From: Anaerolineae bacterium
Lineage (GTDB): Bacteria > Chloroflexota > Anaerolineae > JAADDB01
Direction of reading: 5' to 3'
Assembly: GCA_015490995.1 (NCBI GenBank)
Contig: WFWT01000001.1
Span: forward strand, 10,021-74,020
Length of the DNA: 64,000 nucleotides
Positions 28,458 through 58,792 of this stretch are shown one piece after another. The position numbers were made by a program, and so were the translations under genes. Within the stretch, counting starts at the first letter, position 1. Each line of letters starts with the position of its first letter. The notes below the pieces were generated by a model that worked only from the letters and a program-made list of their open reading frames with translations, was not told the origin of the DNA and did not search any database.

Positions 28458-28465
28458 GGTTCGCC

Positions 28466-29308: not shown

Positions 29309-29335
29309 CTCCTCTTAAGTTCGGTTATTCTCATT

Positions 29336-29632: not shown

Positions 29633-29752
29633 TGTGCCCTCCTTGCCCATTTGAAGTAAAGTTAAAAATGACGGTTCACTCTTTCACAGCCTCATGTTTC
29701 GGGCTAAGAGAACGTCCCATAGGACGAACGGGAGCTCTCCCAATAATCGTGA

Positions 29753-38751: not shown

Positions 38752-39588
38752 ATGAGTGATGACAAAGACCTAGAACGTTCAGCGCCATCATCGTTGCACA
38801 TCTTTACTCCGGTCCGATCAGGCAACGCGTTTGAAGAGACCGTGAGCAAACTGGCCGGGGCGATTAAAGCCCGCCTGTTTAGCCCAGGGGATCGCCTTCC
38901 GCCGGAACGGGAGTTAGCCCGCCACCTTGGGGTCAGTCGGTCCACCCTCCGGGAAGCGTTGCGCGTCCTCGTGGAAGCCGGGTACCTAGAAGTGAGGGTA
39001 GGACGTCATGGAGGTACCTTTGTCGCGCGTTGGCCAGACGTGCCCCGTGGCCCGCGCCAGGCAGCCGTGCTGGAGCGCATGCGCGATGAACTACCGGGAT
39101 TACTGGACTACCGTCGCGCCCTGGAGCCCACCGCGGCCGAATTGGCCGCTTTACGGGCCACCTCAGAGGACATTACCCACCTTGCACGCATTCTCGAGGA
39201 CATGCGCGGAATGGAGAAAACGTTCGATCAATACCGGGCAGGCGACGCCCGCTTCCACGTGCGCATAGCTCAGGCGGCCAAAAGCCCTCTCATTCTCCGG
39301 GGGGTCATTGAAGTCCAAACCGCGCTAACGGAGATCCTCGACCTCATCGTTTACCACTCCCGCCGCACGTTGCTCCACTCCACCGAATACCACTGGCAAA
39401 TCTTCGAGGCCATCCAACAGCGAGAGCCTCACCGCGCGCGGCAGATCATGCTTGACCACATCATGGCTACAGAGCACATCATCCACGGCCTTATCCCCGA
39501 AGCGGACTGGCCGTTAGAAGTACTCCCCAACAACCGCCAATCCCCGGACAACGTGACAGGGCTATCCTCTCATTCGGGTGTAATATAG
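38752..39588 (+). CDS. GntR-family (FadR/FCD subfamily) transcriptional regulator
   Basis: GntR HTH (ERELARHLGVSRSTLREALRVL) plus an FCD-like C-terminal domain; extended -10 TGTAGTATAAT at about 38665-38676. Confidence 0.8.
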   Translation: MSDDKDLERSAPSSLHIFTPVRSGNAFEETVSKLAGAIKARLFSPGDRLPPERELARHLGVSRSTLREALRVLVEAGYLEVRVGRHGGTFVARWPDVPRGPRQAAVLERMRDELPGLLDYRRALEPTAAELAALRATSEDITHLARILEDMRGMEKTFDQYRAGDARFHVRIAQAAKSPLILRGVIEVQTALTEILDLIVYHSRRTLLHSTEYHWQIFEAIQQREPHRARQIMLDHIMATEHIIHGLIPEADWPLEVLPNNRQSPDNVTGLSSHSGVI

Positions 39589-40343
39589 GCCGCGGTAATG
39601 CCGCCATCCACCACCAAGGCTGCCCCGGTGATGTACGAAGAGGCATCACTGGCGAGAAAAAGTGCTGCTTGAGCCACTTCGTGTGGACGGGCAAAACGCC
39701 CCAGGGGGATGTGAACGAGGCGGCGTTGTCGGCGTACGGGATCGGCCAGCAGGTCTGCCAGCAAAGGTGTCTCCACTGGTCCAGGGCATAGCGCGTTAGC
39801 CCGAATGTTCTGGCGAGCGAATTCGACTGCAATCTCGCGAGTGAGGGCCAGCACTCCCCCCTTGCTGGCCGTGTACGCAATTTGGGATACAGCCGCTCCC
39901 ATCAACGCCACAAAGGACGCCATGTTGATGATAGACCCTCCTCCGGCGCGCAAGAGGGCCGGTATGCCGTACTTACACCCCAGGAAAACTCCCTTTAGGT
40001 TCACCGCGATGACGTGATCCCAGATGTGCTCATCGGTCTCTAAAATAGAGGTATCCTTGGGGTGAAAGATGCCCGCGTTGTTGAACAAGACATCCAACTG
40101 ACCATAGCGCTCCTCGGCAAAGGCGACCATGGCCTGCACATCTTCAGCCTTAGACACATCTGCCCGGACGAAAGCCGCTTCACCCCCTGCGTCCCGAATC
40201 AACCGCACGGTCTCCTCACCACGCTCTTCGTCCACGTCGGCCACCACCACGCGAGCGCCTTCGCGGGCAAAGAGCAACGCGGACTCTCGTCCGATACCAC
40301 TCCCTGCACCCGTGATCAATGCCACTTTGTTCTCCAGTTGCAT
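39570..40343 (-). CDS. SDR-family oxidoreductase (FabG-like)
   Basis: TGAGSGIG, NNAG, and YTASKGG (Y-x3-K) motifs; last gene of the minus-strand cluster. Confidence 0.8.
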   Translation of the reverse strand: MQLENKVALITGAGSGIGRESALLFAREGARVVVADVDEERGEETVRLIRDAGGEAAFVRADVSKAEDVQAMVAFAEERYGQLDVLFNNAGIFHPKDTSILETDEHIWDHVIAVNLKGVFLGCKYGIPALLRAGGGSIINMASFVALMGAAVSQIAYTASKGGVLALTREIAVEFARQNIRANALCPGPVETPLLADLLADPVRRQRRLVHIPLGRFARPHEVAQAALFLASDASSYITGAALVVDGGITAAYITPE

Positions 40344-40474
40344 GTGTATCGCCTCCTTCCGAGCCGAAACGCCGGGCTACGTTCGTCTCAGCCCGACCGT
40401 CTCGGCCCGACCGTTGGGTGATGTCTATCCGCCACGTGATTTACAAGGGGTACCGGGCGTCACGCTCGTTAAGG

Positions 40475-41863
40475 TCACACTCGCTCAAAATAGCGACGCC
40501 GTTCCCAGCTAGTGACCACCTCGTCAAACTTCCGCTGCTCGGTGCGGAAAAAGTGGATGTAATGCTCCACCACTGCTTCACCGAGCACCGACCGCGCCCA
40601 CTCACTCGCTTCCAGCGCAGCCACAGCCTCCTGCAGGGAGGTAGGCACTTGGGGCAAATCCGGACGGTGATAGAGGTCGCCGCTCATCATAGGCGGAGGC
40701 TCTATACGGTTCAACACCCCATCCAGGCCTGCAGCCAGGGTTACAGCAAAGGCCAGATAAGGATTTGCATCCGCGCCGGGTGCCCGGCACTCTATACGTA
40801 GTGATGTCCCTCGCCCTACCACCCGAAAGGCGGCGGTACGGTTATCGTATCCCCAGGCGATGGTAGTAGGGGCAAAGGAGCCACTGGTGTATCGTTTGTA
40901 CGATGTGGGATATGGCGCATAAAAGGCGAAGAGCTCATGTATATGGGCCATCCACCCACCCAAAAACCACCGAAAAAGGGGAGAAACCATCACCGGCCCC
41001 AGGGGTTCCTCGCCGGGAAACAAAGGGTTTCCCTCCAGATCCCACAAACTGGCGTGCAAGTGCATGCTAGAGCCCGCATATCGAGTATCCCACTTGGCCA
41101 TGAAGGTGATGGCACAACCCTGTTGCCACGCGATCTCCTTTGCTGCGTGCTTGTAAATGGTGTGACGGTCCGCCATCTCCAGAAAGTCCGCAAAGTGCAG
41201 GTTGATCTCTCGCTGGCCCGGGCCCCATTCCCCCTTGGAGAACTCCACAGGGATTCCTGAACGTTCTAAGTGACGGCGGATTGCCCCTACAACGAACTCT
41301 TCGCGTGTGCCCTGAAGAATGTGGTAATCCTCAATATACCATCCCAGTGGGGTGAGGTCATTGTAGTCTTTCGCCGCGGCTTCCTCGTACGTCTCGCGGA
41401 AGATGTACATCTCCAGTTCCGAGGCGCCCATAGCCACATACCCTAACTCGCGGGCACGTTCTACCTGTTGGCGCAGTATTGTGCGGGGGGCCACTACGAC
41501 CGGTTCGCCGGTACGTTCATCGTACACATCACACAGCACCAGGGCTGTCTTCTCCAGCCAGCTGGCAATCCGTAACGTCCGCCAGTCCGGTACTAGATGA
41601 ACATCCCCATACCCCGTTTCCCAACTGGTAAAGGTGTACCCCGGCACCGGGTCCATCTCCATGTCACAGGCCAACAGATAATCACACGCGTGAAGTCCAT
41701 GGGTAAGGACGTGGTCCACGAAAAACCGTCCGGTGATACGTTTGCCCACCAATCGCCCATACATGTCCGGAAACGCGGCAATAACCGTGTCGACGTGGCC
41801 TTCCTCTATGACCTGTTGCAGTTGTTCCACCGTCAAGCGGCCTTGCAGGGCTGTATCTGCCAT
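40475..41863 (-). CDS. Glutamine-synthetase-family ligase (GlnA3/GlnA4/PuuA-like gamma-glutamyl-amine synthetase candidate)
   Basis: GS catalytic-domain signatures (KGEWGPGQREINLHF, MAKWDTRYAGSSMHLHASLW). Start set at ATG 41863 (AGGAGGG SD) rather than the TTG at 41926. Confidence 0.78.
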   Translation of the reverse strand: MADTALQGRLTVEQLQQVIEEGHVDTVIAAFPDMYGRLVGKRITGRFFVDHVLTHGLHACDYLLACDMEMDPVPGYTFTSWETGYGDVHLVPDWRTLRIASWLEKTALVLCDVYDERTGEPVVVAPRTILRQQVERARELGYVAMGASELEMYIFRETYEEAAAKDYNDLTPLGWYIEDYHILQGTREEFVVGAIRRHLERSGIPVEFSKGEWGPGQREINLHFADFLEMADRHTIYKHAAKEIAWQQGCAITFMAKWDTRYAGSSMHLHASLWDLEGNPLFPGEEPLGPVMVSPLFRWFLGGWMAHIHELFAFYAPYPTSYKRYTSGSFAPTTIAWGYDNRTAAFRVVGRGTSLRIECRAPGADANPYLAFAVTLAAGLDGVLNRIEPPPMMSGDLYHRPDLPQVPTSLQEAVAALEASEWARSVLGEAVVEHYIHFFRTEQRKFDEVVTSWERRRYFERV

Positions 41864-41922
41864 AGCAAGCCCTCCTGCGAGTGAGGGATCACCTTCCTCC
41901 CGCCTTATCGCTCGAAGTGTGG

Positions 41923-42741
41923 TCAAGGATCACGCAACACGCGTGCCAAACGGTGAGGAAAATCGGTAAAAATACCCGTCACGCCCCACGCGAGCAGGCG
42001 ACGCATGTCCGACTCTTCGTTCACTACCCAAACATTGACCCCACGACCGGCCGCGCGCAGGCGTTGAATGCGCTCTCGTGTGGCCAAGGAGAGGCGCAAA
42101 TTATATGTAGGAAATTCCAACGTATCCCAATCCACCTCTTGCGCTTCACCATACCCTATCAACGCGGCCACCTCCAGGCGAGGATTAGCCTCCCGGACCT
42201 CCCGCAGCCACCGATGGACAAAGGAAGAGATCACCACACACTCCTCCGCCCGTTCCTCGGCAATGAGGGTCAGCACCTTTTCCACCACCGGAAAATCTTC
42301 CATGGGAGGGGGTAAAGCTTTCAGTTCCAAGTTAATGCGCCAGTGATGGGCCTGGGTAAAACGCAACGCCTCTCGAACAGTAGGGATGGATTCCCCCCTG
42401 TACTCGCGTATGTCCTCGGGTGAAACGTGCCCTGCCTGGATCTCACCGAAGGGGTCCTCTTCCACAAACCATGACCCGGCATCCAGGGTATCCAACTCCG
42501 CTTTGGTGAAGGTGGTGACCGTCCAAGGTGCTCGGTGGGGAAAACGCGCGGCCACATTGGTCGTGCGGGCGAGGGAATCGTCGTGCATGAGCACCAGCTC
42601 ACCATCCGCGGTGACGGAGATGTCCACCTCCCACATGTCAGCCCCGGCGGCAAGGGCCTTGCGGGCTGCTGCCAGCGTGTTCTCTGGAGCCAAGCTGCGT
42701 GCCCCGCGATGCGCGATGTTCAGGACACGGCAACGGGTCAT
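41923..42741 (-). CDS. ugpQ: Glycerophosphodiester phosphodiesterase
   Basis: GDPD motifs (NIAHRGARSLAPENT, EVDISVTADGELVLMHD); the ATG overlaps the ugpE stop (ATGA). Confidence 0.85.
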   Translation of the reverse strand: MTRCRVLNIAHRGARSLAPENTLAAARKALAAGADMWEVDISVTADGELVLMHDDSLARTTNVAARFPHRAPWTVTTFTKAELDTLDAGSWFVEEDPFGEIQAGHVSPEDIREYRGESIPTVREALRFTQAHHWRINLELKALPPPMEDFPVVEKVLTLIAEERAEECVVISSFVHRWLREVREANPRLEVAALIGYGEAQEVDWDTLEFPTYNLRLSLATRERIQRLRAAGRGVNVWVVNEESDMRRLLAWGVTGIFTDFPHRLARVLRDP

Positions 42742-43586
42742 TTTTCCTGTCCCAGCGCGAAACCGCGCATCAACTGCTGATGTAGGAAGATGAACACGAT
42801 AAGGGGAGGCAACATTGCCAGCACCGCGCCGGCCATAACCACGCCCCAGTTGGTGGTGTCCTGCACGGCAGTCATGCCTCGCAGGCCCACCTGAATCACC
42901 TGCCGTTCGTTTTCCCGGATGATCACCAACGGCCACAGGTACTGATTCCATACGTAAATGAACTGAATAAGCGCCAGCGCGCCGATCGCGTTCCAGGACA
43001 TGGGCACCAAAATGCTCCACAGGAAACGAAGGGGGCCGGCTCCGTCCACGCGCGCCGCATCAGCCAGCTCACCGGGTATGCTGGCAAAGTGTTGCCGGAA
43101 GAGAAACACTCCCGTAGCACTGGCCATAAAGGGCACAATGAGGGCCAGATAACTGTTGCTCCACCCCAGGTCCGACACCAAATTGAACAGAGCCACGATC
43201 AGGATTTCCGTGGGCATCATGAGAGTGAACAGGATGAAGTAAAAGACCCCATCCTGAAGGGGATAATCAAAGTACACCAGGGCAAGCCCTGCCAGCAGGG
43301 AGAGAATCGTCTTGGCGAATGTGACAGCCAGAGCCACGATGAAACTGTTTTTCATGAACATGCCCAGTTCAAACGAATACCAGGCAGTGCGGTAATTGTC
43401 CAGCAGCGCCGTACCTGGTCCCAGGATCGGCGGATAATGGAAAACCTGCGCGCGCGTTTGGGTCGATTTCGAAACGGCAAAAAGTACCGGCACCAACACC
43501 AGGAAACACACCACAATCAGCGCAATGTGGGTCAGAATTTCGTTGCGCACCTTCCGCCGCACGTGAAACTTCAGCGCCATCATCAC
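42738..43586 (-). CDS. ugpE: ABC transporter permease (UgpE-like)
   Basis: 6-TM ABC permease with an EAA loop (ELADAARVDGAGPLRFL). Confidence 0.82.
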   Translation of the reverse strand: MMMALKFHVRRKVRNEILTHIALIVVCFLVLVPVLFAVSKSTQTRAQVFHYPPILGPGTALLDNYRTAWYSFELGMFMKNSFIVALAVTFAKTILSLLAGLALVYFDYPLQDGVFYFILFTLMMPTEILIVALFNLVSDLGWSNSYLALIVPFMASATGVFLFRQHFASIPGELADAARVDGAGPLRFLWSILVPMSWNAIGALALIQFIYVWNQYLWPLVIIRENERQVIQVGLRGMTAVQDTTNWGVVMAGAVLAMLPPLIVFIFLHQQLMRGFALGQEK

Positions 43587-44473
43587 CCTCCATAGTGGAC
43601 ATATCGCCCAGACGTGCGGAATTGTAGCAGGGTCAAACCGACCACCAACAGGAAGAGAATCACGGACTGGGCCGCGGCATATCCGCTCTTGTAGTACTCA
43701 AACGCGTCTCGGTATAGGTTGTAGATCATGACGTTCGTCGCGTTCATCGGCCCGCCTTTGGTCACAATGTCGATCATGCCAAAGAGGTCGAAGAAGGAAT
43801 AGGTGATATTGGTGATTAACAGGAAAAAGGTGATGGGAGAGAGCAGCGCGAAGGTCACCGACCAGAAACGCCGCCAGGGGCCGGCACCGTCAATTTCCGC
43901 TGCTTCTAAGATCTCCGTGTTCAAGTTTTGTAGGCCGGCCAGGTAAAAGACCACGTTGTACCCCAGGTTCTTCCAAATGCTCGCCATAATAATGAGCACC
44001 ACCGCCAACCGTGGATTCCCCAACCAGTTCAACTCTCGTCCGATCACCTGGGAAAGCAAGTAATTGATGGCTCCAAAGCCCGGGGCGAAAAGGAACAAGA
44101 AGATCACACCTGCTACCGCGGGCGAAAGCGCGTAAGGCCAAATTAGCAAGATGCGGTACACGGAAGCACCACGGATGTTTTGGTTGGCCAGCATAGCAAT
44201 GGCTAGCGAGATAGCTAACCCACCAATAACCACGGCCACGGTGATCACCAACGTGACCCGAACCGTGTGCCAATAATCCGGACTTTGCAAGAGACTGACA
44301 AAGTTATCCAGCCCCACAAACTGACGTCGCATACCTAGAAACGCGGTGCGATACAGAGAAAGCCGGAACGTTTGAATGACCGGATAGTACAGGAAAACCA
44401 GGAGAATGGCCAGGGTAGGGGCCAGTAACAAGAAGGGCAACAACCGTCCCTTAAATTTGGCCTGATAAGGCAT
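43583..44473 (-). CDS. ugpA: ABC transporter permease (UgpA-like)
   Basis: 6-TM ABC permease with an EAAEIDGAGPWRRF loop; ATG at 44473 with a GGAGGGG SD. Confidence 0.82.
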   Translation of the reverse strand: MPYQAKFKGRLLPFLLLAPTLAILLVFLYYPVIQTFRLSLYRTAFLGMRRQFVGLDNFVSLLQSPDYWHTVRVTLVITVAVVIGGLAISLAIAMLANQNIRGASVYRILLIWPYALSPAVAGVIFLFLFAPGFGAINYLLSQVIGRELNWLGNPRLAVVLIIMASIWKNLGYNVVFYLAGLQNLNTEILEAAEIDGAGPWRRFWSVTFALLSPITFFLLITNITYSFFDLFGMIDIVTKGGPMNATNVMIYNLYRDAFEYYKSGYAAAQSVILFLLVVGLTLLQFRTSGRYVHYGG

Positions 44474-44630
44474 AGATCTTCCCCTCCGTCTCCTCATAGC
44501 GTTGCCGACAGCGGTCGCCTTATCCTTACCTCAAGAGAGTAGGGCGAACGCGCCTCCCGGGTGTCATGTAGCCGTCGCAACGGGAACCCTTTACGGTGCT
44601 TTTTTCATTATAGCGCGAAGCCCCGCCCTG

Positions 44631-44677
44631 AAAATAAGGGGACGGGCCGGGGCAAGGAGATACATTACCCCGGCCCG
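44631..44677 (-). terminator. Hairpin attenuator/terminator after the ugpB-like SBP gene
   Basis: 10-bp stem CGGGCCGGGG/CCCCGGCCCG followed on the minus strand by TTATTTT. Confidence 0.4.
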
Positions 44678-44691
44678 TGCGGACATCGCGA

Positions 44692-46128
44692 TTACTGGCC
44701 GATGGACTTATTATACTCCTCGAGGGCCCGGTCTGCCTTCTGTTTGGCCTCGGCCAGAGCGTCGTCCACGCTGGCCTCGCCCGCCAGCACCTTCTCGACA
44801 GCCTGCTCGATGATGGTCCGGATCTCGGGGAAGGGTCCCATCAGAGCGCCCTGGGTCGCCCGGTTGGCCTTGGTCTGGAGAAGCTGGTCAAAGGCCGCCC
44901 GATAGGCCGGGTTGGTCTCGAACCAGCGCTGCTGACGGAGGACCTCCACAGCGGACTTGCGGATGGGGAAGTAACCGGTTCCCTTGTGCCAGCGGATCGC
45001 GTTCTCCGTGTTGGTGAACCAGACGATGAAGTCCTTCGCCGCCTGCAATTCCTCAGGCGGATGGTCCTTGGTCAGCCAGAGGCTCGCGCCACCGACCACT
45101 ACACCCTGCCATTCCTGATCGCCGGGATAGGGCAAGTACGACGTTCCCAGCTCAAAGCCGTTGGCCACCGCGTCTCGCTGCCGCTGGACTACATCGCTGG
45201 TGGACGTGATCTCCATGGCGGCCTGGCCGGACACAAAGATGGCATCAGAGCCATCCCAGTCCTCCAGCTTACCGCTGTAAGCGTAGTAACCCTTGTCGTA
45301 CATTTCCTTCCACCAGGACACGATCCGTTTGGCCGCGTCGCTGGTCAGGAGCACCTCGGTGGCGCGAGCATCCCGACCGTTGCCGTTGTTGGCCAACATC
45401 GCGCCCTGCACTGCCATCCACTGTTCGAAGAACCAGGAGTGCAACGGCCAGGTCACGCAGTTCTTTGCCGCACCGCTGGAGACAATCTGTTCGCAGACGT
45501 CCAGCATCTCCTCAAAGGTGCGCGGCGGCTTCTCGGGGTCCAGACCGGCTGCGCGGAAGATGTCTTTGTTGTAATAAAGGATGGGATTAGAGGAATTCCA
45601 GGGCATGGAGTAGAACTTGCCGGCAAAGTTGTAGTAGTTGGCCACACCTTCGATCAGATCATCCGGCTGGTATTCCTCGGGCTTGGCCAGATCTGCAAAG
45701 GGCACAAAGATGCCCGAATCCAGAGCCAGCTGCGACCCCACTTCGAAGATCTGCACGATGTGTGGGGGATTCCCCTGTTGGGCCGCCAGAATGGCCGCGT
45801 TCAGCGTATCCCGGTAAGAGCCCTTGTACTCGGCCCGTACGTAGATGCCCGGGTGGGTGTAATTGAAGTCGTCCACCATGCGCTGAATGAACAACTTTCG
45901 CCCACCACCAAACGCGTGCCAGAACTCGATAACAGTCGCTCCCTCGGGGATCTGCTCTTCAGGGGCCTGCTCTACAACGCGCGTCACCTCCACAATACGG
46001 GTGACCTCAACCACTTGCGGTTGAGCCTCTTGGGGCTGTTGCTGTCCGCCTGCACAGGCCGCCAGCAACGCCAACATCACTAACGTGGCGAACAGCACAC
46101 TCCACATGTACCTGCGCCGGTTCAACAT
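44692..46128 (-). CDS. ugpB: ABC transporter substrate-binding lipoprotein (UgpB-like, family 1)
   Basis: Signal peptide with lipobox (LLAACAGG) plus a solute-binding domain; ATG at 46128 with an AAGGAGGGGAG SD. Confidence 0.8.
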   Translation of the reverse strand: MLNRRRYMWSVLFATLVMLALLAACAGGQQQPQEAQPQVVEVTRIVEVTRVVEQAPEEQIPEGATVIEFWHAFGGGRKLFIQRMVDDFNYTHPGIYVRAEYKGSYRDTLNAAILAAQQGNPPHIVQIFEVGSQLALDSGIFVPFADLAKPEEYQPDDLIEGVANYYNFAGKFYSMPWNSSNPILYYNKDIFRAAGLDPEKPPRTFEEMLDVCEQIVSSGAAKNCVTWPLHSWFFEQWMAVQGAMLANNGNGRDARATEVLLTSDAAKRIVSWWKEMYDKGYYAYSGKLEDWDGSDAIFVSGQAAMEITSTSDVVQRQRDAVANGFELGTSYLPYPGDQEWQGVVVGGASLWLTKDHPPEELQAAKDFIVWFTNTENAIRWHKGTGYFPIRKSAVEVLRQQRWFETNPAYRAAFDQLLQTKANRATQGALMGPFPEIRTIIEQAVEKVLAGEASVDDALAEAKQKADRALEEYNKSIGQ

Positions 46129-46257
46129 GGCTCCCCTCCTTTCATCCCACAAAATGTTCGCCAACGACCCGCCGTGGGCACTTACCTGCAATTACCATCC
46201 ACCAGCACTCTCACCTCCTTTCATCATTAGGTAGGGGGATGGCACGGTGAGGGTTGC

Positions 46258-47133
46258 TTACCGCCGCAAAGCGGGTAAGACCAGGTACTCCAACCAGTTA
46301 CGTATCTCCCGCTCCCGTATATCCGGGTTCAAAATGTCTTCCCCAACGGCCAACGCCTCTCGAAGTGTTCGATCTTCCGGGTGATGGTGCAACGCCTTCA
46401 TTTGAGAAGCGTACGCGGCCACAGCGGCCTCATCAGGGAAAAACCCTTCCTTGACCAGGGCGGAGGCGCGCGCCGCGATAAGCCGTCCCATCTCATAGAG
46501 GTTGTATTCGGGATGATACTGGGTTGCCCAAAATGTCCCCCCTTGATACTCCACTGCCAACGCCTGAACAGGTGTATGATCGTTGGTGGCCAACACCGTT
46601 CCCCCTGGGGGCACACGGGTCACTTCGTCCAGGTGCATGATAAACGCATCAAAACAGTCGGGCTTGCCTTGGAGCAACTGCGAGTTCCTGCCAGCAGCTG
46701 TACGTCGGATATTCCGGGCAATGCCCCACTCCCGCCCACGTGGGTTGCGGCGTACCTCCCCACCGGCCGCAACCGCAGCCATTTGCACCCCCCAACAACT
46801 GCCGAACATAGGCACCCCTGCCGCAAAGATCGCCCGCGCCAACTCAACCTGACGCGTCACCCGCGGGTCATCGTGGTAAATCGTGAGGTCCGAACCGGTC
46901 CATATGTACCCATCGTACGAACGCAACGCCGTTCCCTGGGGCAACGATTGGTCCAGGTCCGCCACAAAGAGCACATCAATGTGCACGGTCGGCAAATATC
47001 GCCGTAACACCGCAGCATACAAGTCATGGGGATGACCGACATCCAAACGGTCAAAGTTTTCCCGGCTGGGACGGGGGTATCCGTTCAATATGCAAATCGC
47101 GATGTTGAGGTCAACCTCCACGTTGATGGGCAT
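46258..47133 (-). CDS. Class-I glutamine amidotransferase-like gamma-glutamyl hydrolase (PuuD/C26 peptidase family)
   Basis: GATase1 nucleophile elbow (FGSCWGVQ) and His region (QYHPEY); ATG at 47133. Confidence 0.72.
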   Translation of the reverse strand: MPINVEVDLNIAICILNGYPRPSRENFDRLDVGHPHDLYAAVLRRYLPTVHIDVLFVADLDQSLPQGTALRSYDGYIWTGSDLTIYHDDPRVTRQVELARAIFAAGVPMFGSCWGVQMAAVAAGGEVRRNPRGREWGIARNIRRTAAGRNSQLLQGKPDCFDAFIMHLDEVTRVPPGGTVLATNDHTPVQALAVEYQGGTFWATQYHPEYNLYEMGRLIAARASALVKEGFFPDEAAVAAYASQMKALHHHPEDRTLREALAVGEDILNPDIREREIRNWLEYLVLPALRR

Positions 47134-47274
47134 CGAGCCGTCACCTTTGTGCCACGCTTCTCCCCCGAGAGGGCAGGAGCTTGCCACAACCGTCCCACAA
47201 AAACACAGCCTCACGGCTAGGGCATCACGTGGGACCGCTGAAGTGATGGGCGTCATCGCTTCCGATGGCGGGAG

Positions 47275-47303
47275 TGATTATACCCTGCCCTCTCGGAGGT
47301 GTC
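47275..47303 (-). promoter_or_regulatory. Consensus sigma-70 promoter (TTGACA-N17-TATAAT) upstream of the PuuD-like gene
   Basis: Minus-strand sequence TTGACACCTCCGAGAGGGCAGGGTATAAT, about 140 nt upstream of the 47133 start and just 3' of the AOR gene. Confidence 0.5.
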
Positions 47304-47350
47304 AAGTTTCGTCGCTAAAGGCATGAAATAAGACCATATTCCCCACACGG

Positions 47351-49246
47351 TCAGAGGCCTAGGCGATCGGCCACCCAAGCAAGGCCCACCCCTTCCAGGG
47401 TGGCCCGTGTGGGGTTACCCGTGGCCACATCCCACCCGTTTAAGGCATAATATACGTCCTTTGCCTGTTCCAGCTCCGCCTCGCTCAGGCGAATACCATC
47501 GCTCTTTCCGCCTCTTAACGCTTCCTTGAAGAATCGCTTGGGCAACGTGTCCGCCTCTCGGCCAAACCCTTCCCGGGCGTTAAATGCCCGCAGGAGATTT
47601 AGACGCCGGCGTCCCACCTCCATTAACTCGTACAAGCTCACGTTCCATCCGGTGATCGCGTTAAGCGCCTCCACCAACTGTAAAGCATCGTACAGCTGCC
47701 AGGCCGGTCCAAAGACGAACTGACACACGTTGACTGTGTCCAACGCGCTGTACAACCACTGGGTGCGTACGGCAAAGGTGACCTTTTCACCGTTTAACAC
47801 CTTTGGCGCTACCGGATCCTTTAGATCCAGCGTGGCCATGCGTTCCGGATACTGCACGTAGGCAGGATCGTGCTCGCTGGACTGGTGATCTGCGCCGAAG
47901 GGGTTCACCGCGTAGATCAGGCCTAACGAGCGTTTGAGGTGGGGCATGTGTGCGGGCACTTCCTGCCCCTTGACCGCCACCACAAACTGCTCTGTACCGC
48001 GACCGATCAGCTGGGCTGCCCTGGCCGAGCCTTCCGCCAGGATGTGGCCAAAACCCTCCCGTTTGGCGATCTTCTCCACCATTTGTACCATGGCCTCCGC
48101 GTTGCCGAACCGCAGCTCCACCCCATCGGTGTCCTCCTTTGTCAACAGCCCGACCTCGAAACACTCCATGGCCCAGGCAATGGTCGCGCCACAGGAGATG
48201 GTGTCCATACCGTACATGTTACACAGCTGGTTAGCATAGGCGATCGCTTCCAAGTCATCCACGCCGCAATACGCGCCAAAGGTGGCGAGCGTCTCGTATT
48301 CGGGGCCGCCATACCGGGGATGAACCTGATACCGACCATCGGTGATCTCCACGACACGCTTACATCGGACCACACAACCATAACAGGTATCCCGCTTTTT
48401 CAGGATTTCCTCGTACATGCGTTCGCCGGAGATCTGATCGGCGCCCTCAAAGTATCCCGATTGCCAGTTCCGTGTGGGCAATCCACCGACCTTATTTTGG
48501 GGCACTGTCACTACGGCTGTGCCGAAGAGGGCGAGGCCGGCAGCGTCCGAACTATCCAGATGTTGCGCTCCCCAACGGGCCATACCCTTCAGGCGGTCCG
48601 GGTGGGCCACCTTGGGCTTCCATCGATTGGAGCCCGTGGCCACAATGGCCTTTAACCGTTTACTCCCCATGACCGCGCCCATCCCCGTTCGGCCGTTGGC
48701 CCGGTTAGCCATGTTCATGATGGCCGCAAAGCGTACCCTGTTCTCTCCCGCCGGACCAACCTGTAGCACTTCCAGCCTTTTCACCCCTAACTCTTCCTTG
48801 ATGAGGTCCTCCACCTCTCCGGTCACCCTGTCCCAGAGATGGGACGCATCGCGCAATTCCGCTTCCCCATCATGAAGCCACAGATACACCGGCCGTCGGG
48901 CTTGTCCCCGAATGATAACGGCGTCAAAACCCGCGAACTTCAGTTCGGCCGGAAAATAACCGCCACACTGCGAGTCCCCGACCATGCCTGTCAGCGGAGA
49001 TTTGGCGGCCACGGTCAGACGGGACTGTCCAGAAATCGGCACGCCGGCCATAGGCCCCACAGCCATGGCCAATACGTTCTCTGCCGCAAAGGGGTCCACC
49101 CCCGCCGGCATGTCACGCAGGAGATAATAAAGGCACAGCGCACTTCCTCCCATGTACTTGCGATAAAACGCCTCCTCGGGGATCTCCACACGGAGCTCAC
49201 CGGTGGTTAGATCGACGTGTAGGATACGGCCGTGGAATCCGTACAT
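47351..49246 (-). CDS. Aldehyde:ferredoxin oxidoreductase (tungsten/molybdopterin AOR family)
   Basis: AOR N-terminal domain (MYGFHGRILHVDLTTGE) through the conserved C-terminal cluster/pterin-binding domains (e.g. DTISCG); AGGAGG SD. Confidence 0.9.
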   Translation of the reverse strand: MYGFHGRILHVDLTTGELRVEIPEEAFYRKYMGGSALCLYYLLRDMPAGVDPFAAENVLAMAVGPMAGVPISGQSRLTVAAKSPLTGMVGDSQCGGYFPAELKFAGFDAVIIRGQARRPVYLWLHDGEAELRDASHLWDRVTGEVEDLIKEELGVKRLEVLQVGPAGENRVRFAAIMNMANRANGRTGMGAVMGSKRLKAIVATGSNRWKPKVAHPDRLKGMARWGAQHLDSSDAAGLALFGTAVVTVPQNKVGGLPTRNWQSGYFEGADQISGERMYEEILKKRDTCYGCVVRCKRVVEITDGRYQVHPRYGGPEYETLATFGAYCGVDDLEAIAYANQLCNMYGMDTISCGATIAWAMECFEVGLLTKEDTDGVELRFGNAEAMVQMVEKIAKREGFGHILAEGSARAAQLIGRGTEQFVVAVKGQEVPAHMPHLKRSLGLIYAVNPFGADHQSSEHDPAYVQYPERMATLDLKDPVAPKVLNGEKVTFAVRTQWLYSALDTVNVCQFVFGPAWQLYDALQLVEALNAITGWNVSLYELMEVGRRRLNLLRAFNAREGFGREADTLPKRFFKEALRGGKSDGIRLSEAELEQAKDVYYALNGWDVATGNPTRATLEGVGLAWVADRLGL

Positions 49247-49460
49247 GAACGCCTCCTCTTCTGTCTACCAGTGATGTCCCATATTTCCTCAAATCCATCC
49301 CCCCTCACCTGTGCCATCCTGATACATGACCACGCGCCCACACCATCGATTAATCGCCATAAAATATATTTGTGATAGGTGAGTGATATGCTAAAAGTGA
49401 GGGACACGAATGTCAAATTCAAGGCTACCTGATGGGTCAGATCCCGGAGCAGACGAGTGG

Positions 49461-52019
49461 TTATTCACGCACCCGCACGTCTGCCGGCATCCCGGCTTTT
49501 AGCAGACCGTCAGGGTTGGGCACCCGCACTTTCACCCGTACGACCATCTGCACCCGATCGGAACGCACTTGCACCGCCTTAGGCGTGAATTCAGCCTCGT
49601 CCGCAATCCACACTACCTGTCCTGGGAAAACCTGTCCTGGATACGCGTCTACCAGCACGTCCACACGCTGTCCCAGGTTAAAACGTCCCAATTCAGGCGT
49701 AGGAACAAAGATAACCAGATCCAGGGTGGAGAGGTCCCCGATAACCAAGGTCGTTACACCGGCCTGAGCTACCTCACCGGACCGGACGTCTACCGAAAGA
49801 ACGGTTCCATTGGCGGGCGCAACAACCGTGTACCGTGCAAGCTGTGCCTGGACCAACGCGAGCGCGGCTCGTGCCCGTGCGACATCGGCCTTTGCTAGGG
49901 CTATCTCCTCCGGCCGTGCCGGAGCCTCCGCCACGGCTAACGCGCTCTCAGCCGCGGTTAATCTGGCCTGGGCGACCTGGAGTTCGCCTTCTGCTTGCCG
50001 TACTTGCGCCAGCAAGGCAAGAGGTTTCTCCCGTATCTGCTGCAGGGTAGTCAACAAGCGGCGCGTGCCGGCTATTTCCGCTTCAACCGCCTGGAGGGAC
50101 GCATCCGCTGCCGCGACCTGTTTCTCGGCCATTGCGAACCGAGTACGTCCTTCATCGGTAACCGCGAAACGGTAGAAATCCCGGGTGACTTCGGCCTCCT
50201 TCTTGCGGGCGCGGGCCTCTTCCAACTGCTGTTCCAACACCGCCAGTTGCGCTTCTGTTTGTCGGATGGCATTCTCCAACGCGACCGGTTTGGCCAACAC
50301 CGCGCGAGCAGCCTCTAAGCGCGTTCGAGCTGCCGCTACCTCTGCCCGCGCTTGGTACACTCCCGCGCGGGCGAGGCGTACCTCAGCCGGCACAGGCTGT
50401 GATGCCACCTCCGCCAGGCGGGCCATGGCCGCATCAAGCGCGGCTTCGGCCTCACGCACACGCTGCACCAACGGGCCGGGCTCAAGGCGCAATAACACCT
50501 CACCGGCATTGACTGTATCCCCCTCGGTTACCGTCAGTTCCAGCACCTTAGCCGTAACCTCCGGCATAACCCGCACCTTGCGCGCCTCCAACGTGCCGGA
50601 ATAAAGGGCCTCTTCCTGCGCATTCCTATCGGTTATGAGCGGTGGTGGGGGCACGGCGGTTAAGGTCACATCCGCCGGCATGCCTGGCTTTAACATACCC
50701 TCAGTATTGGGAACCACCACATCGACCGCGTACACTAGAATTACCCGTTCTTCTCGCGTTTGCACGTTCTTGGGGGTAAATTCCGCTTCATCTGCTATGC
50801 GAACCACTTGTCCTTCAAAGGGCTGTTGTGGGAACGCGTCCACCCACACATAGACCTCTTGACCTAGGGTAAAACGGCCCAGTTCGGCTTCCGGCACATA
50901 AATGGTTAAACGCAGAGTGGTGAGATCCGCGATTTCCAGCAACGGAACGCCAGGTACGGCCACTTCCCCGGGTTCCACACTGCGCTGTACAACCCGACCG
51001 TTAAGGGGGGCGGTCAGCACATACAGGGAACGCTGTGCCACCAGGCGTGCGTGCGCCGCACGGGCGCGCCGCACATTGGCTTCGGCTGCGGCAATCGCCT
51101 CCTCACTAACCGCCTCATCCAACGCGGCCTGCTGCTCTTTTGCTGCCGCCAGCGCGGCCTCCGCCTGACGGAGCGCGGTTTCGGCTGCCACTATCGGCTC
51201 CCGTCGTGCCGGATCGTCCAGTCGTGCTCGCGCGGCCGCCAGCGCGGCTTCTGCAGCCTTCACCGCGGCCTCTGCTTGCCGGTACCGGGTCCACGCCTGC
51301 CAGGCTCGTTGAGAAGCAAGGTTCCACTGGTAGTTCACTTCGTTCAATTGCTCCGGCGGGACCGGCACGCGTTGCTGCTCTCCACCGGGCAGCGTGAGGG
51401 TAACGCCCGCGTAAGCCTGCTCCGCCGAACGACGCCACAAGTCCACCAACAAGTCTGCCGCTTGCGCTTGCGCCAAGGCCGCATCTCGCCGGTAACGGGC
51501 CTTGGCCAACTCGATCTCTGCCCGAATAATGTCTGGCCATATGTCCTGTGCGGCCTCATACACTGCTTGGGCGTCGGCAAGGGCTTGTTGTGCTGCTTCC
51601 ACAGCAACACGGGCAGCTCTCACTTCGGCTTCAGCTCGCGCGCGCTCTTCTGACCGGGGACCTGCCCGCAGCAAAGCCAGTTGGGCTTCCGCCAACCGTA
51701 CCTCCGCTGCGGCTAAAGCGATCTCTTTCTCCAGCAGGGTGGTGTCCAATTGGATAAGCACCTCGCCGGAGACCACGTTGTCTCCCTCCTCAACGGCGAC
51801 CGTCACTACCCGGGCCGGAACTTGGCTCATCACCTGCACTTCAGTAGCCTCTAACACACCGGAATACACACCGTCCTGGGCTGCTCCAGAGGACCACCCT
51901 TGCCAAATCGCCTGCCATGCCACCATGGTTGTGGAGGGTATCCAACCCTGTGCGTACGCAACGTACCCCCCCACCACCAAGACAAGCAGGGTTAACAACA
52001 CACCTATCCCCCGCTTCAT
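49461..52019 (-). CDS. Tandem-duplicated HlyD-family membrane-fusion (periplasmic adaptor) protein
   Basis: 852-aa protein with an N-terminal TM helix and two consecutive HlyD units, each with biotinyl-lipoyl, long coiled-coil and beta-barrel segments. The two halves end in near-identical GQVVxIADEAEFTPKxVQ...GMPADV motifs. Confidence 0.7.
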   Translation of the reverse strand: MKRGIGVLLTLLVLVVGGYVAYAQGWIPSTTMVAWQAIWQGWSSGAAQDGVYSGVLEATEVQVMSQVPARVVTVAVEEGDNVVSGEVLIQLDTTLLEKEIALAAAEVRLAEAQLALLRAGPRSEERARAEAEVRAARVAVEAAQQALADAQAVYEAAQDIWPDIIRAEIELAKARYRRDAALAQAQAADLLVDLWRRSAEQAYAGVTLTLPGGEQQRVPVPPEQLNEVNYQWNLASQRAWQAWTRYRQAEAAVKAAEAALAAARARLDDPARREPIVAAETALRQAEAALAAAKEQQAALDEAVSEEAIAAAEANVRRARAAHARLVAQRSLYVLTAPLNGRVVQRSVEPGEVAVPGVPLLEIADLTTLRLTIYVPEAELGRFTLGQEVYVWVDAFPQQPFEGQVVRIADEAEFTPKNVQTREERVILVYAVDVVVPNTEGMLKPGMPADVTLTAVPPPPLITDRNAQEEALYSGTLEARKVRVMPEVTAKVLELTVTEGDTVNAGEVLLRLEPGPLVQRVREAEAALDAAMARLAEVASQPVPAEVRLARAGVYQARAEVAAARTRLEAARAVLAKPVALENAIRQTEAQLAVLEQQLEEARARKKEAEVTRDFYRFAVTDEGRTRFAMAEKQVAAADASLQAVEAEIAGTRRLLTTLQQIREKPLALLAQVRQAEGELQVAQARLTAAESALAVAEAPARPEEIALAKADVARARAALALVQAQLARYTVVAPANGTVLSVDVRSGEVAQAGVTTLVIGDLSTLDLVIFVPTPELGRFNLGQRVDVLVDAYPGQVFPGQVVWIADEAEFTPKAVQVRSDRVQMVVRVKVRVPNPDGLLKAGMPADVRVRE

Positions 52020-52044
52020 GTCTTGTTCCCCCCCATAACGTCGA

Positions 52045-53007
52045 TCATCCGTCTTGGTTCGGATCAACACCCGAACTAGAACGATCTCGAATGCGCGCGA
52101 TGAACACATCTTCCAAGGAAGGTGGAATCACCAGTGCACTTCGTACAGAGATACCTGCTTCGTGCAGTCGACGTCGGATGGCTTCCTCCAGCTGGGCCAC
52201 CTCCTCCGCGACCACATGGACACGCTTGCCGTATAGAGCGACTTCATCGAAAACTCCCCATCCTTTCAACACACGCACTGCCAGTTCCGGGTGGCTGACC
52301 TCTATCTCCATCACCTCGCCGTGCATCTGAGTTGCCTTGATCTCCTGGGGTGTGCCTTGGGCCACAATACGTCCTTGATGGATAAACGCCAAGCGGTGAC
52401 AATTTTCCGCTTCGTCCATGTAGTGCGTCGTCACAAAAATGGTCTTTCCCTGGTCCACCAGCGCGTACAACAATTCCCAGAATTGACGTCGCGATACCGG
52501 ATCGACCCCTGCTGTGGGCTCATCCAGAAATAGGAGGTCAGGGTCATGAAGAATGGCGGCTCCCAGGGCCAGCCGCTGTCGCCACCCGCCCGATAACGTA
52601 CGGGTAAGGGCCCGTTCTCGTCCCTGAAGGCCGGCCATGGCCAGCACCATAGCTTTGCGTTCCCGCAACGTGCGGGGAGGCACGTTATACGCCCGGCCAA
52701 AGAAGTTCAAATTTTCTTCCACCGTCAGATCCTGATACAGGCTGAACTTCTGGCTCATATATCCGACCCGTCTGCGTACCGCGGCTACCTCTTGCGGGAT
52801 CGCGTGTCCCAGAACGTAAATGGTGCCGGCAGTGGGAGGTAACAGTCCCAGAATCATGCGAATCGTGGTAGTCTTGCCGGAACCGTTAGGGCCCAGGAAA
52901 CCAAAGATTTCCCCCCGCAAGACGTGGAACGAGATGGCATCTACCGCCGTGAATTGACCAAACCGCCGGGTTAATTGTTCAACACGAATCGCCGCCGTGT
53001 CCTTCAT
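52045..53007 (-). CDS. ABC transporter ATP-binding protein (ABC-2/DrrA-like)
   Basis: Walker A GPNGSGKTT, LSGGWRQRLALG signature, and Walker B LLFLDEPTAGVD. Confidence 0.85.
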   Translation of the reverse strand: MKDTAAIRVEQLTRRFGQFTAVDAISFHVLRGEIFGFLGPNGSGKTTTIRMILGLLPPTAGTIYVLGHAIPQEVAAVRRRVGYMSQKFSLYQDLTVEENLNFFGRAYNVPPRTLRERKAMVLAMAGLQGRERALTRTLSGGWRQRLALGAAILHDPDLLFLDEPTAGVDPVSRRQFWELLYALVDQGKTIFVTTHYMDEAENCHRLAFIHQGRIVAQGTPQEIKATQMHGEVMEIEVSHPELAVRVLKGWGVFDEVALYGKRVHVVAEEVAQLEEAIRRRLHEAGISVRSALVIPPSLEDVFIARIRDRSSSGVDPNQDG

Positions 53008-53969
53008 CGTTCGCCCCGCTCGTGTACATGTTTCAGGAGGAAAATGAAAGCTTCCTCCAGATGTGGCCGAGCCTCGAACACGGTAGCAAAGGGCACCTGC
53101 GCTTGCTCCAGCGCTGTCCGGACGGCGGGGATCACCGATGGCGGGTCGGGAACGAGCAAGCGTAACCGGTCACCATGCACCTGAACATCGAGCGCGGCGG
53201 TTACAGCACTCAGGGCCTGGCGAGCTCGACGCACCGGCAGCCGTCCATCGGCAGCCGGCTGCAGATGCACTTCCACCAACCGGCCAGGAAGCCGACCGAT
53301 GATGGCTTCCGGCGTGTCCTGAACGAGGATGCGTCCCTCATACATAAGAGCTACTTGGGCACAACGCTCCGCCTCATCCATGTAGGGCGTGCTGACCAGG
53401 ATAGTCACCCCTTCCCCTAACAGGTCGGCCAATAAGTCCCAGAACTCGCGCCGGGAAACCGGGTCTACCCCTGTGCTGGGCTCATCCAGGAGCAGCAATC
53501 GCGGCCGGTGAACCAACGCACATGCGAGGGCCAGTTTTTTCTGCATCCCACCGGACAGATGCCGCGCGCGGCGGTCACGAAACCGGTCCAAACGAGCGAA
53601 ACGCAGGAGTCGCTCAAGACGCTCGCGGCGTGCTCTCCCACGTACCCCGTGCACGTCCGCAAAGAAATTCAAGTTCTCCCAAACACTCAGGTCGCCGTAC
53701 AGGCTGAACTGTTGGGGCATGTACCCTATCTGCTCACGAATGCGCTCCGCATCACGGCGCACATCCCACCCTAACACCCGGGCATCGCCGCGCGAGGGCG
53801 GCAGCACAGTAGCCAACATCCGGATCAACGTGGTTTTGCCCGCACCATCCGGGCCAATCAGACCGAAGATCTGCCCCGGCGCGATCTGAAGGGTTACCTC
53901 CCGAACAGCCTCCACTGTGTCAAAGACTCGCGTTAGCTCGTACGTTTCAATGGCCCATTGGCGATTCAT
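53004..53969 (-). CDS. ABC transporter ATP-binding protein (second NBD, ABC-2 type)
   Basis: Walker A GPDGAGKTT, LSGGMQKKLALA signature, and Walker B LLLLDEPSTGVD. Confidence 0.85.
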   Translation of the reverse strand: MNRQWAIETYELTRVFDTVEAVREVTLQIAPGQIFGLIGPDGAGKTTLIRMLATVLPPSRGDARVLGWDVRRDAERIREQIGYMPQQFSLYGDLSVWENLNFFADVHGVRGRARRERLERLLRFARLDRFRDRRARHLSGGMQKKLALACALVHRPRLLLLDEPSTGVDPVSRREFWDLLADLLGEGVTILVSTPYMDEAERCAQVALMYEGRILVQDTPEAIIGRLPGRLVEVHLQPAADGRLPVRRARQALSAVTAALDVQVHGDRLRLLVPDPPSVIPAVRTALEQAQVPFATVFEARPHLEEAFIFLLKHVHERGER

Positions 53970-53981
53970 AATATTCCCCTC

Positions 53982-55103: not shown

Positions 55104-55112
55104 TGTTGCCCC

Positions 55113-55709: not shown

Positions 55710-55923
55710 CTCTAACCACCGTCTTGATTGAACGATCAGTCAAGACGGGCGCATTGTAATCTTCACCCGTCACCGAGGTCAAATGTCCGTCAGCTTATAG
55801 CACTCCAATGGGCGATTAGTACCATAAACCCATTGTAAACCGCGCTCTTTCTCCCTACACTGAACTTGAATCATTGGCATCGCCCCCACTTACGGTATGC
55901 GGTTATTAAGACAGGAGGTAGAC

Positions 55924-56763: not shown

Positions 56764-56789
56764 ACAGTAAACATGAGGAGGCCTTCACC

Positions 56790-58790: not shown

Positions 58791-58792
58791 GC

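Follow-up and report, generated by a model that had tools for sequence, protein, structure and literature searches.

We analysed a 64,000-nucleotide (nt) stretch of DNA, hereafter the window, from an Anaerolineae bacterium (Chloroflexota; GenBank contig WFWT01000001.1, positions 10,021 to 74,020), whose minus strand carries a cluster of eight co-directional genes (39570-49246). From upstream to downstream, the genes encode an aldehyde:ferredoxin oxidoreductase (AOR), a stand-alone protein with the class-I glutamine amidotransferase (GATase) fold, a Ugp-like binding protein with two ATP-binding cassette (ABC) permeases, a glycerophosphodiester phosphodiesterase (GDPD), a glutamine synthetase (GS)-like ligase and a short-chain dehydrogenase/reductase (SDR). 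A regulatory gene of the GntR family converges on the last of them (Table 1). We consider it likely that the cluster runs the gamma-glutamyl ethanolamine route on glycerophosphodiesters, and this account as a whole is a prediction from gene context.

An original prediction, made from the sequence of the window, had described eight minus-strand genes running in one direction, and Pfam and NCBIfam searches as well as the gene calls of L081 bore out their existence. L-numbers denote comparison loci and contigs throughout; L081 is an independent contig that comes from the species of the window (99.7% nucleotide identity to the window), and L170 comes from a sister species (85-86% protein identity). 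Note that the starts of the longest open reading frames (ORFs) lay too far upstream for five of the genes; gene starts were reset by the L081 gene calls, and all are ATG. The intergenic gaps from the AOR gene through the SDR gene are 217, 129, 218, 2, -4, 59 and 131 nt, so that ugpE and the GDPD gene share 4 nt at the stop of the one and the start of the other, an arrangement of translational coupling, and the SDR gene begins 131 nt downstream of the ligase gene. L170 keeps the gene order of the window, including the adjacency of the AOR and GATase genes. The nearest homologues of the AOR, GATase-like and GS-like proteins carry the names Chloroflexi, Anaerolineae and Caldilineae, in line with a Chloroflexota host.

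Table 1. Genes and predicted signals of the cluster, with the distant ATPase gene discussed in the text (window positions; aa, amino acids)
Feature	Position	Strand	Size, domains and remarks
AOR	47351-49246	-	631 aa; AFOR_N + AFOR_C
Class-I GATase-fold protein, stand-alone	46258-47133	-	291 aa; GATase 61 bits, Peptidase_C26 36 bits
UgpB-like binding lipoprotein	44692-46128	-	478 aa; lipobox LLAAC
UgpA-like ABC permease	43583-44473	-	296 aa; BPD_transp_1, best NCBIfam match UgpA
UgpE-like ABC permease	42738-43580	-	280 aa; BPD_transp_1, best NCBIfam match UgpE
GDPD, UgpQ-like	41923-42741	-	272 aa; GDPD 149 bits
GS-like ligase	40475-41863	-	462 aa; Gln-synt_C 313 bits
SDR, classical NAD-type	39570-40343	-	257 aa; adh_short_C2 243 bits
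GntR/FCD regulator	38752-39588	+	GntR and FCD domains; convergent with SDR
Sigma-70-type promoter, TTGACA-17-TATAAT	47277-47305	-	12/12 match; between AOR stop and GATase start
Promoter-like site of AOR	49416..49388	-	10/12 match
UgpC/MalK-type ABC ATPase, second CUT1 system	19766-20920	+	ABC_tran, OB_MalK, TOBE_2

Families of the enzymes, importer and regulator

The family of the ligase was judged by the cutoffs of curated hidden Markov models and by bit scores against structures in the PDB. The ligase matched PDB 11zs (466 bits, E 1e-138, 50% identity) and 5dm3 (429 bits, E 2e-127, 47% identity) over its full length, whereas true GS structures scored at most 175 bits, the glutamate-methylamine ligase 9qur 146 bits and PauA7 (4hpp) 65 bits. 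We take 5dm3 to be Csal_0679, the ligase of the ethanolamine pathway of Chromohalobacter salexigens. On the curated models, the protein reached 245 bits for TIGR00653 (GlnA type I; cutoff 429.15), 131 bits for PRK09469 (cutoff 845), 228.7 bits for TIGR03105 (GmaS/type III glutamate-ammonia ligase; cutoff 469.6) and 204 bits for NF045547 (PuuA equivalog; cutoff 650). These scores place the ligase outside the ammonia-assimilating GSs, PuuA and GmaS, and it is a predicted ethanolamine gamma-glutamylase, that is, a gamma-glutamylethanolamide synthetase. The earlier view that the protein is not a bona fide GS therefore held. On the other hand, the suggestion of a PuuA-type polyamine ligase was not supported, given the PuuA score and a cluster that holds neither an oxidase nor an aminotransferase; in Pfam and NCBIfam searches no amine oxidase and no aldehyde dehydrogenase (ALDH) were found in the cluster.

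The SDR has the motifs TGAGSGIG (TGxxxGxG) and YxxxK. Its beta-2 ends in an Asp, which suggests NAD+ as the cofactor; the protein is a predicted gamma-glutamylethanolamide dehydrogenase.

The GATase-like protein has a catalytic triad of Cys113 (in GSCWG), His207 and Glu209 (in YHPE) that was invariant in 36 homologues. Its AlphaFold model (pLDDT 94.9) found Arabidopsis gamma-glutamyl peptidase 1 (GGP1) as the best fold match in the PDB (E 1.7e-16, TM 0.79), and the GATase domains of GMP synthases ranked behind it. The Peptidase_C26 protein of the canonical clusters described below is absent from the cluster; the GATase-like protein shares 27% identity with it, and its own C26 domain match is weak (36 bits). 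With the fold of the model in mind, we propose that the protein is a gamma-glutamyl-amide (gamma-glutamylglycine) hydrolase. It had been called PuuD-like, a description that stands as analogy and fails as orthology. The family comprises 4,482 database clusters at E <= 1e-10, and its members are labelled 'type 1 glutamine amidotransferase' or 'GMP synthase' in public records.

The binding protein matched E. coli UgpB (PDB 6x84/4aq4) at E 1e-64 and 222 bits, compared with 89 bits for the best sugar-binding protein, and by sequence it clearly belongs to the UgpB family. The GDPD matched GDPDs in the PDB; it has no signal peptide, and its N-terminus leads straight into the HRG catalytic motif, indicating that it is a cytoplasmic, UgpQ-like enzyme. 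No ABC ATPase gene, and no ugpC, lies within the cluster. It had been supposed that an ATPase is supplied in trans; none is in the cluster, as that supposition had it, and the window contains a UgpC-like gene at a distance of 20 kb. The product of this gene (19766-20920) reached 404.6 bits on NF008653, the UgpC subfamily (cutoff 432), and may, tentatively, serve the importer. Two ATPases at 52045-53969 were rejected as UgpC candidates, being part of an HlyD/ABC-2/TetR efflux unit. The UgpC-like gene belongs to a second CUT1 transporter on the plus strand (16257-25826), which is followed by genes for a 487-aa protein whose C-terminal part is a GDPD domain (21119-22582) and for two large proteins without a Pfam match (22632-23774 and 23868-25826). 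Given this second transporter and its GDPD-domain gene, the window may hold a second glycerophosphodiester system.

The AOR has both family domains (AFOR_N 243 bits, AFOR_C 427 bits) and the cysteines of the Fe-S cluster motif CxxCxxxC ('CYGCVVRC'), confirming its placement in the aldehyde:ferredoxin oxidoreductase family. No Aldedh gene was found in the 38.7-49.3 kb region. The only Aldedh-family gene of the window (26652-28157) was considered as the missing ALDH and rejected, since it encodes an acylating microcompartment enzyme (PRK15398, 659 bits) that is 22% identical to the canonical ALDH. A pyruvate:ferredoxin oxidoreductase (PFOR) is encoded in the window (2097-5675), indicating that ferredoxin-based metabolism is present.

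The regulator beside the cluster proved to be a GntR/FCD protein, as had been expected of this gene. Its homologues lie near the ligase and SDR genes in L002, L015 and L017 (65% identity) and beside cyanobacterial clusters (39-43%), and the convergent position recurs in L083; the protein is a candidate regulator that probably acts on the GS-SDR part of the cluster. No operator-like repeat was common to the upstream regions of the AOR, GATase and GntR genes. The L083 contig, whose GS-like protein is 82% identical to that of the window, ends 447 nt upstream of its GS-SDR-GntR genes. This stretch (nt 1-447) contains a direct repeat of about 30 nt, is non-coding and holds no GDPD C-terminus, as seen in a check of whether L170 and L083 join into a full cluster. 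Either an assembly break or an insertion where the window has the GDPD gene could account for it.

Conserved partnerships in other genomes and metagenomes

The genes present, their families and their conserved partnerships were observed directly, the partnerships in two sets of loci. The GS-like protein is 62-82% identical across Cyanobacteria, Acidobacteriota (Thermoanaerobaculia), KSB1, Calditrichota, Nitrospinota and Anaerolineae. For 80 genome loci with orthologues at 62-75% identity (the GS-anchored set), all ORFs were clustered and recurrent families were annotated. ALDH was found in 54/80 loci, Peptidase_C26 in 17 and an amino-acid permease in 10. An SDR 63-84% identical to that of the window was adjacent to the ligase gene or a few genes downstream in about 55 of the 80 by tblastn, and the corresponding ORF cluster covered 62. 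The canonical module of these loci consists of an amino-acid permease or an ethanolamine-type tripartite ATP-independent periplasmic (TRAP) transporter, ALDH, the GS-like ligase, Peptidase_C26 and SDR, with a divergent GntR gene in some. In the closest relatives (L002, L015 and L017), the ligase and SDR are 73-74% and 80% identical to those of the window, and a TRAP transporter (DctP, DctQ, DctM) is encoded directly upstream of the ligase. The binding protein of this transporter matched PDB 4uab, which we take to be ethanolamine-bound Csal_0678, at E 9e-138. Binding of ethanolamine has been reported for Csal_0678 and its Phaeobacter homologue (Westermann 2023, PMC10132767).

The second set was anchored on the GATase-like protein and consisted of 80 metagenome loci at 53-71% identity and four annotated contigs, 84 in all, with partners scored by tblastn; 35 of the 84 loci are at least 8 kb long. 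SDR was present in 30/84 loci (21/35 of the long ones), GDPD in 30/84 (17/35), the GS-like ligase in 13/84 (7/35), AOR in 9/84 (7/35) and ALDH in 10/84 (7/35), and AOR and ALDH never occurred together (0/84 and 0/35). Among the metagenome-scan contigs, ugpBAE was found in 6/80 and a Pot-like ABC system in 14/80.

The arrangement of these genes varied (GAT, GATase-like gene). The order is ugpB-A-E-GDPD-GS-GAT-SDR in L091, DeoR-ugpB-A-E-(GDPD)-GS-AOR-GAT-SDR-HAD-x-GDPD in L102, where HAD is a haloacid dehalogenase, and ugpBAE-GDPD-GDPD-x-HAD-x-AOR-GAT-SDR in L096. In L122 it is ugpBAE-...-DeoR-GDPD-GAT-SDR-ALDH, and in L176 AOR-GS-SDR-ABC are divergent from GAT-DeoR-phosphodiesterase-MFS-GDPD. 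In L098, L107 and L117, SDR and GS share one strand and are divergent from GDPD-GAT, a Pot-type substrate-binding protein, an ATPase and permeases, with ALDH beside SDR in L107 and L117. The same families thus stand together in at least five gene orders on unrelated contigs (these eight loci), and such recurrence in reshuffled orders indicates a functional unit rather than an accident of the window genome. The original prediction had treated GDPD, GATase-like protein, SDR, GS-like ligase, ugpBAE and AOR as a unit, and their co-occurrence in other metagenomic contigs agrees with it.

In L102 (9399-11529) and L096 (5918-8038), genes for a NagD-like HAD phosphatase and for a conserved protein of about 410 aa without a Pfam domain were also seen. 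These two accompany clusters of ugp, GDPD, AOR, GAT and SDR genes and are absent from the window.

Proposed route and competing explanations

Every substrate and activity in the following scheme is predicted from sequence. The UgpBAE-like importer, with an ATPase in trans that is possibly the 19766-20920 product, would take up glycerophosphoethanolamine, which is deacylated phosphatidylethanolamine, and the cytoplasmic UgpQ-like GDPD would split it into glycerol-3-phosphate and ethanolamine. The GS-like ligase would then use one ATP and glutamate to form gamma-glutamylethanolamide, and the NAD-type SDR would oxidise this to gamma-glutamyl-aminoacetaldehyde with formation of NADH. The AOR, rather than an NAD-dependent ALDH, would convert the aldehyde to gamma-glutamylglycine and yield reduced ferredoxin. 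Finally, the GGP1-like GATase, rather than a hydrolase of the Peptidase_C26 or formylglutamate-amidohydrolase type, would release glutamate and glycine. For this full statement, that is, ethanolamine gamma-glutamylation fed by glycerophosphoethanolamine with an AOR at the aldehyde step, we see a little better than an even chance; its least certain parts are the oxidation by the AOR and the nature of the diester that is imported. A number of observations weigh against this scheme, and we give them here with the explanations to which they lend support.

The AOR is the weakest link in the membership of the cluster, because it has a separate promoter and because its nearest relatives are found in unrelated amine and methylamine clusters. 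The perfect promoter between the AOR and GATase genes (47277-47305) has -35 and -10 hexamers that, together with 40 nt upstream, are fully conserved in L170, with a diverging leader; it probably starts a GATase-to-SDR operon. The AOR gene has a promoter-like site of its own (10/12), and on this sequence evidence it is probably transcribed separately. No terminator is claimed after the AOR gene, since a hairpin at 47352-47332 was not conserved in L170. No Rfam match was obtained in the whole window at gathering thresholds, so that the 135-nt GATase leader is without a known riboswitch. A 16-nt inverted repeat (47162-47177/47284-47299; 94% complementary, arms 106 nt apart) has its arms in the promoter spacer and the GATase 5' leader, and L170 differs at both.

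As for the relatives, an AOR 87% identical to that of the window (L172, 7614-9509; also in L173) stands at the end of an MttB/corrinoid/iron-containing alcohol dehydrogenase (Fe-ADH) cluster. Another, 75% identical, adjoins a second AOR and a histidine kinase, and AORs at 67-77% identity occur with class-III aminotransferases, saccharopine-dehydrogenase-like genes and ALDHs. These contexts indicate that the AOR clade is not dedicated to the pathway, and N-substituted aminoaldehydes could be their common thread. The L172 cluster encodes an electron transfer flavoprotein, GntR, an MttB-family methyltransferase, Fe-ADH, a corrinoid protein, DUF5981 and methylenetetrahydrofolate reductase, a set that suggests anaerobic oxidation of a quaternary amine or choline-type alcohol by Fe-ADH and AOR, followed by demethylation.

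The separate promoters and the 67-87% identical AORs of unrelated clusters, together with several GATase-SDR-GDPD loci that have neither AOR nor ALDH nearby, are what would be expected if the pathway were as proposed and the AOR stood outside it, as a separate, general (amino)aldehyde oxidoreductase with the ALDH encoded elsewhere. We regard this explanation as unlikely, although it is the strongest competitor. In L102, L096 and L176, the AOR gene is in one operon with GS-like, GATase or SDR genes at gaps of 4-29 nt. A different AOR clade (40-45% identity) adjoins GDPD and GAT in L103, L121 and L130, and SDR as well in L103, which indicates repeated recruitment. Furthermore, the 9/84 frequency of AOR in the GATase-anchored loci exceeds the roughly 2% expected (binomial P ~5e-5), an expectation that rests on an assumed 2-6 AOR genes per genome, and the adjacency of AOR and GATase is retained in L170. 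The absence of any overlap between AOR and ALDH points the same way; with 7 and 7 of 35 long loci it would arise by chance with P ~0.18, so that this exclusivity is not significant alone and is only suggestive.

Doubts about the substrate come from the importer and from the wider habits of the GATase family. In NCBIfam, the scores were 248.6 bits for UgpB (equivalog cutoff 411), 259.9 for UgpA (NF007852; cutoff 335) and 229.9 for UgpE (NF008210; cutoff 297), and the best match of the GDPD, the UgpQ-type PRK09454, gave 126 bits (cutoff 264). The transporter proteins are therefore Ugp-like by sequence and not proven equivalogs, and with the GDPD also below its cutoff the transported diester is a tentative assignment. 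GAT-SDR or GDPD-GAT pairs are often without a ligase within 10 kb (L174, L175, L137), and tight GDPD-GATase pairs without any ligase occur in L137 and L157. In L160, L119, L109 and L112, a GCS2-type carboxylate-amine ligase is a further partner of the GATase family, together with SDR and ALDH; in the GATase-anchored metagenome loci this ligase (4 loci) and the GS-like ligase (12 loci) shared none, and the GCS2-type loci may represent a parallel pathway with a different ligase. Other partners of the GATase are choline/ethanolamine kinase, a dimethylglycine-dehydrogenase-like flavoprotein and HAD phosphatases. Such partners, and a ligase specificity that is predicted by sequence, would suit another amine or amino-alcohol head group, such as N-methylethanolamine, aminopropanol, serinol or an amide-linked head group cleaved directly by the GATase. 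We find this improbable, given that the ligase is 73-74% identical to the copies downstream of the TRAP transporter whose binding protein matches 4uab, that it shares 47% identity with 5dm3, and that SDRs of canonical clusters share 63-84% identity with that of the window.

It can also be argued that the genes came together by chance, with Ugp and GDPD scavenging phosphate or glycerol-3-phosphate, GS and SDR handling ethanolamine that arrives by another route, and GATase and AOR being unrelated. The ugp, GDPD, AOR and window-type GATase genes were found in 0/80 GS-anchored loci within 10 kb. The original prediction had tied the ligase to AOR and PuuD-like partners, and this tie holds for one set of loci only: all 80 GS-anchored loci were without both, having ALDH with or without Peptidase_C26 instead, whereas some GATase-anchored loci do join them. 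The cluster also has a mosaic look. Its GS and SDR are up to 75% and 84% identical to those of canonical ALDH/C26 clusters and 54-64% and 54-68% identical to those of GATase/GDPD clusters, whereas its GAT, ugp and GDPD products resemble those of L091, L096 and L102 at 61-79%. Because GS and SDR are nearer to the canonical clusters, the cluster may be a recent juxtaposition or fusion of two modules, and several promoter-like sites lie inside it. Set against chance are the recurrence of the same families in at least five gene orders on unrelated contigs, the overlap of the ugpE stop and GDPD start, and the gap of only 59 nt between the GDPD and GS genes, so that we give this explanation little credence. 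Lastly, the notion that the ligase is an ordinary ammonia-assimilating GS or a PuuA-type polyamine ligase, to which the Gln-synt_C domain and the 'glutamine synthetase' annotation of homologues in public records might lead, is effectively refuted by the family scores and structure matches given above and by a conserved gene neighbourhood of ALDH, SDR, hydrolase and ethanolamine-type transporter.

Returning to glycerophosphoethanolamine-fed gamma-glutamylation, a wider claim can be put forward tentatively: anaerobic Chloroflexota and some Desulfobacterota-like sediment bacteria may have built a ferredoxin-linked form of the pathway, in which AORs of at least two clades apparently replaced ALDH more than once, and hard-wired it to a diester importer and a GDPD. 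We hold this to be possible, though short of an even chance. Phosphatidylethanolamine is a major bacterial lipid, and sediments and bioreactors should therefore be rich in its deacylated head-group ester as a nutrient. Anaerobes are known to use ethanolamine through the B12-dependent Eut microcompartment; studies of the gamma-glutamyl route have, to our knowledge, been made in aerobes until now. If the proposal is true, the gamma-glutamyl ethanolamine pathway would extend to anaerobes, with an oxygen-sensitive, ferredoxin-linked aldehyde step, and phospholipid head groups of necromass would be converted directly to glutamate, glycine, glycerol-3-phosphate and low-potential reducing power. It would also add N-acylated aminoaldehydes as a new class of AOR substrates, give a function to a widespread family labelled only 'type 1 glutamine amidotransferase / GMP synthase', and aid the reading of carbon, nitrogen and phosphorus recycling from metagenomes.

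Elsewhere in the window, a microcompartment locus lies on the minus strand (26043-32013). It encodes a PduT-like tandem-BMC shell protein (26043-26636), the acylating aldehyde dehydrogenase mentioned above (26652-28157), two small ORFs that are possible shell proteins (28161-28469 and 29336-29650), a CcmP-like BMC-T protein at its NCBIfam cutoff (29753-30385), a metallo-beta-lactamase-fold protein, a DeoC-type aldolase and RpiB. The locus resembles microcompartments of the sugar-phosphate-utilisation type rather than Eut. The 2097-15227 region encodes PFOR, citrate synthase, CobT, CobS, isocitrate dehydrogenase and the flavoprotein and Fe-S subunits of a fumarate reductase/succinate dehydrogenase, an anaerobe-like set of central metabolism. 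The flanks of the cluster are unrelated to it, with HlyD, two ABC ATPases, an ABC-2 permease and TetR upstream (49461-55709) and nadC, nadA, nadB and a NiaR-like regulator downstream. Chemotaxis genes (CheR, two methyl-accepting chemotaxis proteins, CheW and CheA) occupy 55897-63568.

Comparison with known systems

The AOR resembles the tungsten/molybdenum AOR family of Pyrococcus furiosus in its full AFOR_N and AFOR_C domains and its CxxCxxxC motif. We know of no description of an AOR that acts on an N-gamma-glutamyl aminoaldehyde or replaces ALDH in a gamma-glutamyl pathway. A full-text literature search did not find AOR, gamma-glutamyl and ethanolamine in combination, and in the portions of the sources available to a search on glycerophosphoethanolamine, GDPD and GS-like proteins no GDPD- or Ugp-linked GS-like cluster was apparent; the coverage of both searches was incomplete, making them weak evidence of absence.

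The Ugp part is comparable to E. coli UgpBAEC with UgpQ, in that UgpB, UgpA and UgpE are the best matches of the three proteins and the next gene downstream encodes a cytoplasmic UgpQ-like GDPD. It differs in that the components score below the equivalog cutoffs, ugpC is not in the cluster, and the genes are joined to an amine-catabolic module instead of forming a Pho regulon unit. The predicted hydrolase, like GGP1 (PDB 9k7i-9k7l), consists of a class-I GATase fold that stands alone and carries a Cys-His-Glu triad, and the hydrolysis of a gamma-glutamyl amide by GGP1 is the activity predicted here from the modelled fold. However, the two proteins are only about 19-21% identical, and the window protein adds a C-terminal helical region of about 70 residues.

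With the Puu pathway of E. coli (PuuA-D) and the Pseudomonas Pau/Spu systems, the cluster shares, in its predicted steps, the logic of masking an amine as a gamma-glutamyl amide by a GS-family ligase, oxidising it to the acid and freeing glutamate by a hydrolase of the class-I GATase fold. In contrast, the window ligase is not PuuA and is distant from PauA7, a PuuB-type oxidase is lacking, and an AOR takes the place of PuuC. The presence of an SDR alcohol dehydrogenase suggests an amino alcohol rather than a diamine.

The closest counterpart is the published route from ethanolamine through gamma-glutamylethanolamide, gamma-glutamyl-acetaldehyde and gamma-glutamylglycine to glutamate and glycine, catalysed in turn by a ligase, a dehydrogenase, an ALDH and an amidohydrolase (PMC10132767, PMC6529630, PMC9397018). 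It is known from S. coelicolor (GlnA4/SCO1611-1615; Krysenko 2019, PMC6529630), from the Phaeobacter 'Eto' operon (MED193_10026-10056; Westermann 2023, PMC10132767) and, according to the latter paper, from C. salexigens and A. tumefaciens (Vetting 2015, as cited there). The C. salexigens pathway and its homologues are described in both PMC6529630 and PMC10132767, and phosphatidylethanolamine induces the gamma-glutamylation pathway in Phaeobacter (PMC10132767). The order of steps given in the original prediction (SDR, aldehyde oxidation, gamma-glutamyl hydrolase) is that of the published pathway. Its statement that the pathway had not been described as a unit needs to be divided, since the gamma-glutamyl ethanolamine route is already published, and what is new is the Ugp/GDPD front end together with the exchange of ALDH for an AOR.

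The window cluster and the Eto/GlnA4 systems share the ligase family (compared through 5dm3 and 11zs, 47-50% identity), an SDR with orthologues in the canonical clusters, the predicted sequence of ligation, alcohol oxidation, aldehyde oxidation and hydrolysis to glutamate and glycine, and a regulator beside the cluster. On the other hand, the window has UgpBAE-like proteins and a cytoplasmic GDPD in the position where those systems have an ethanolamine TRAP transporter (EtoVWX) or an amino acid-polyamine-organocation (APC) permease, neither of which is in the cluster. It has an adjoining AOR and no NAD-dependent ALDH, and a GGP1-like GATase and no hydrolase of the Peptidase_C26 or formylglutamate-amidohydrolase type. 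Its host, moreover, is probably an anaerobic Chloroflexota bacterium. What is new in this variant is thus a Ugp and UgpQ-like front end in place of an ethanolamine transporter, an AOR in place of ALDH, and a GGP1-like GATase in place of the C26 hydrolase.

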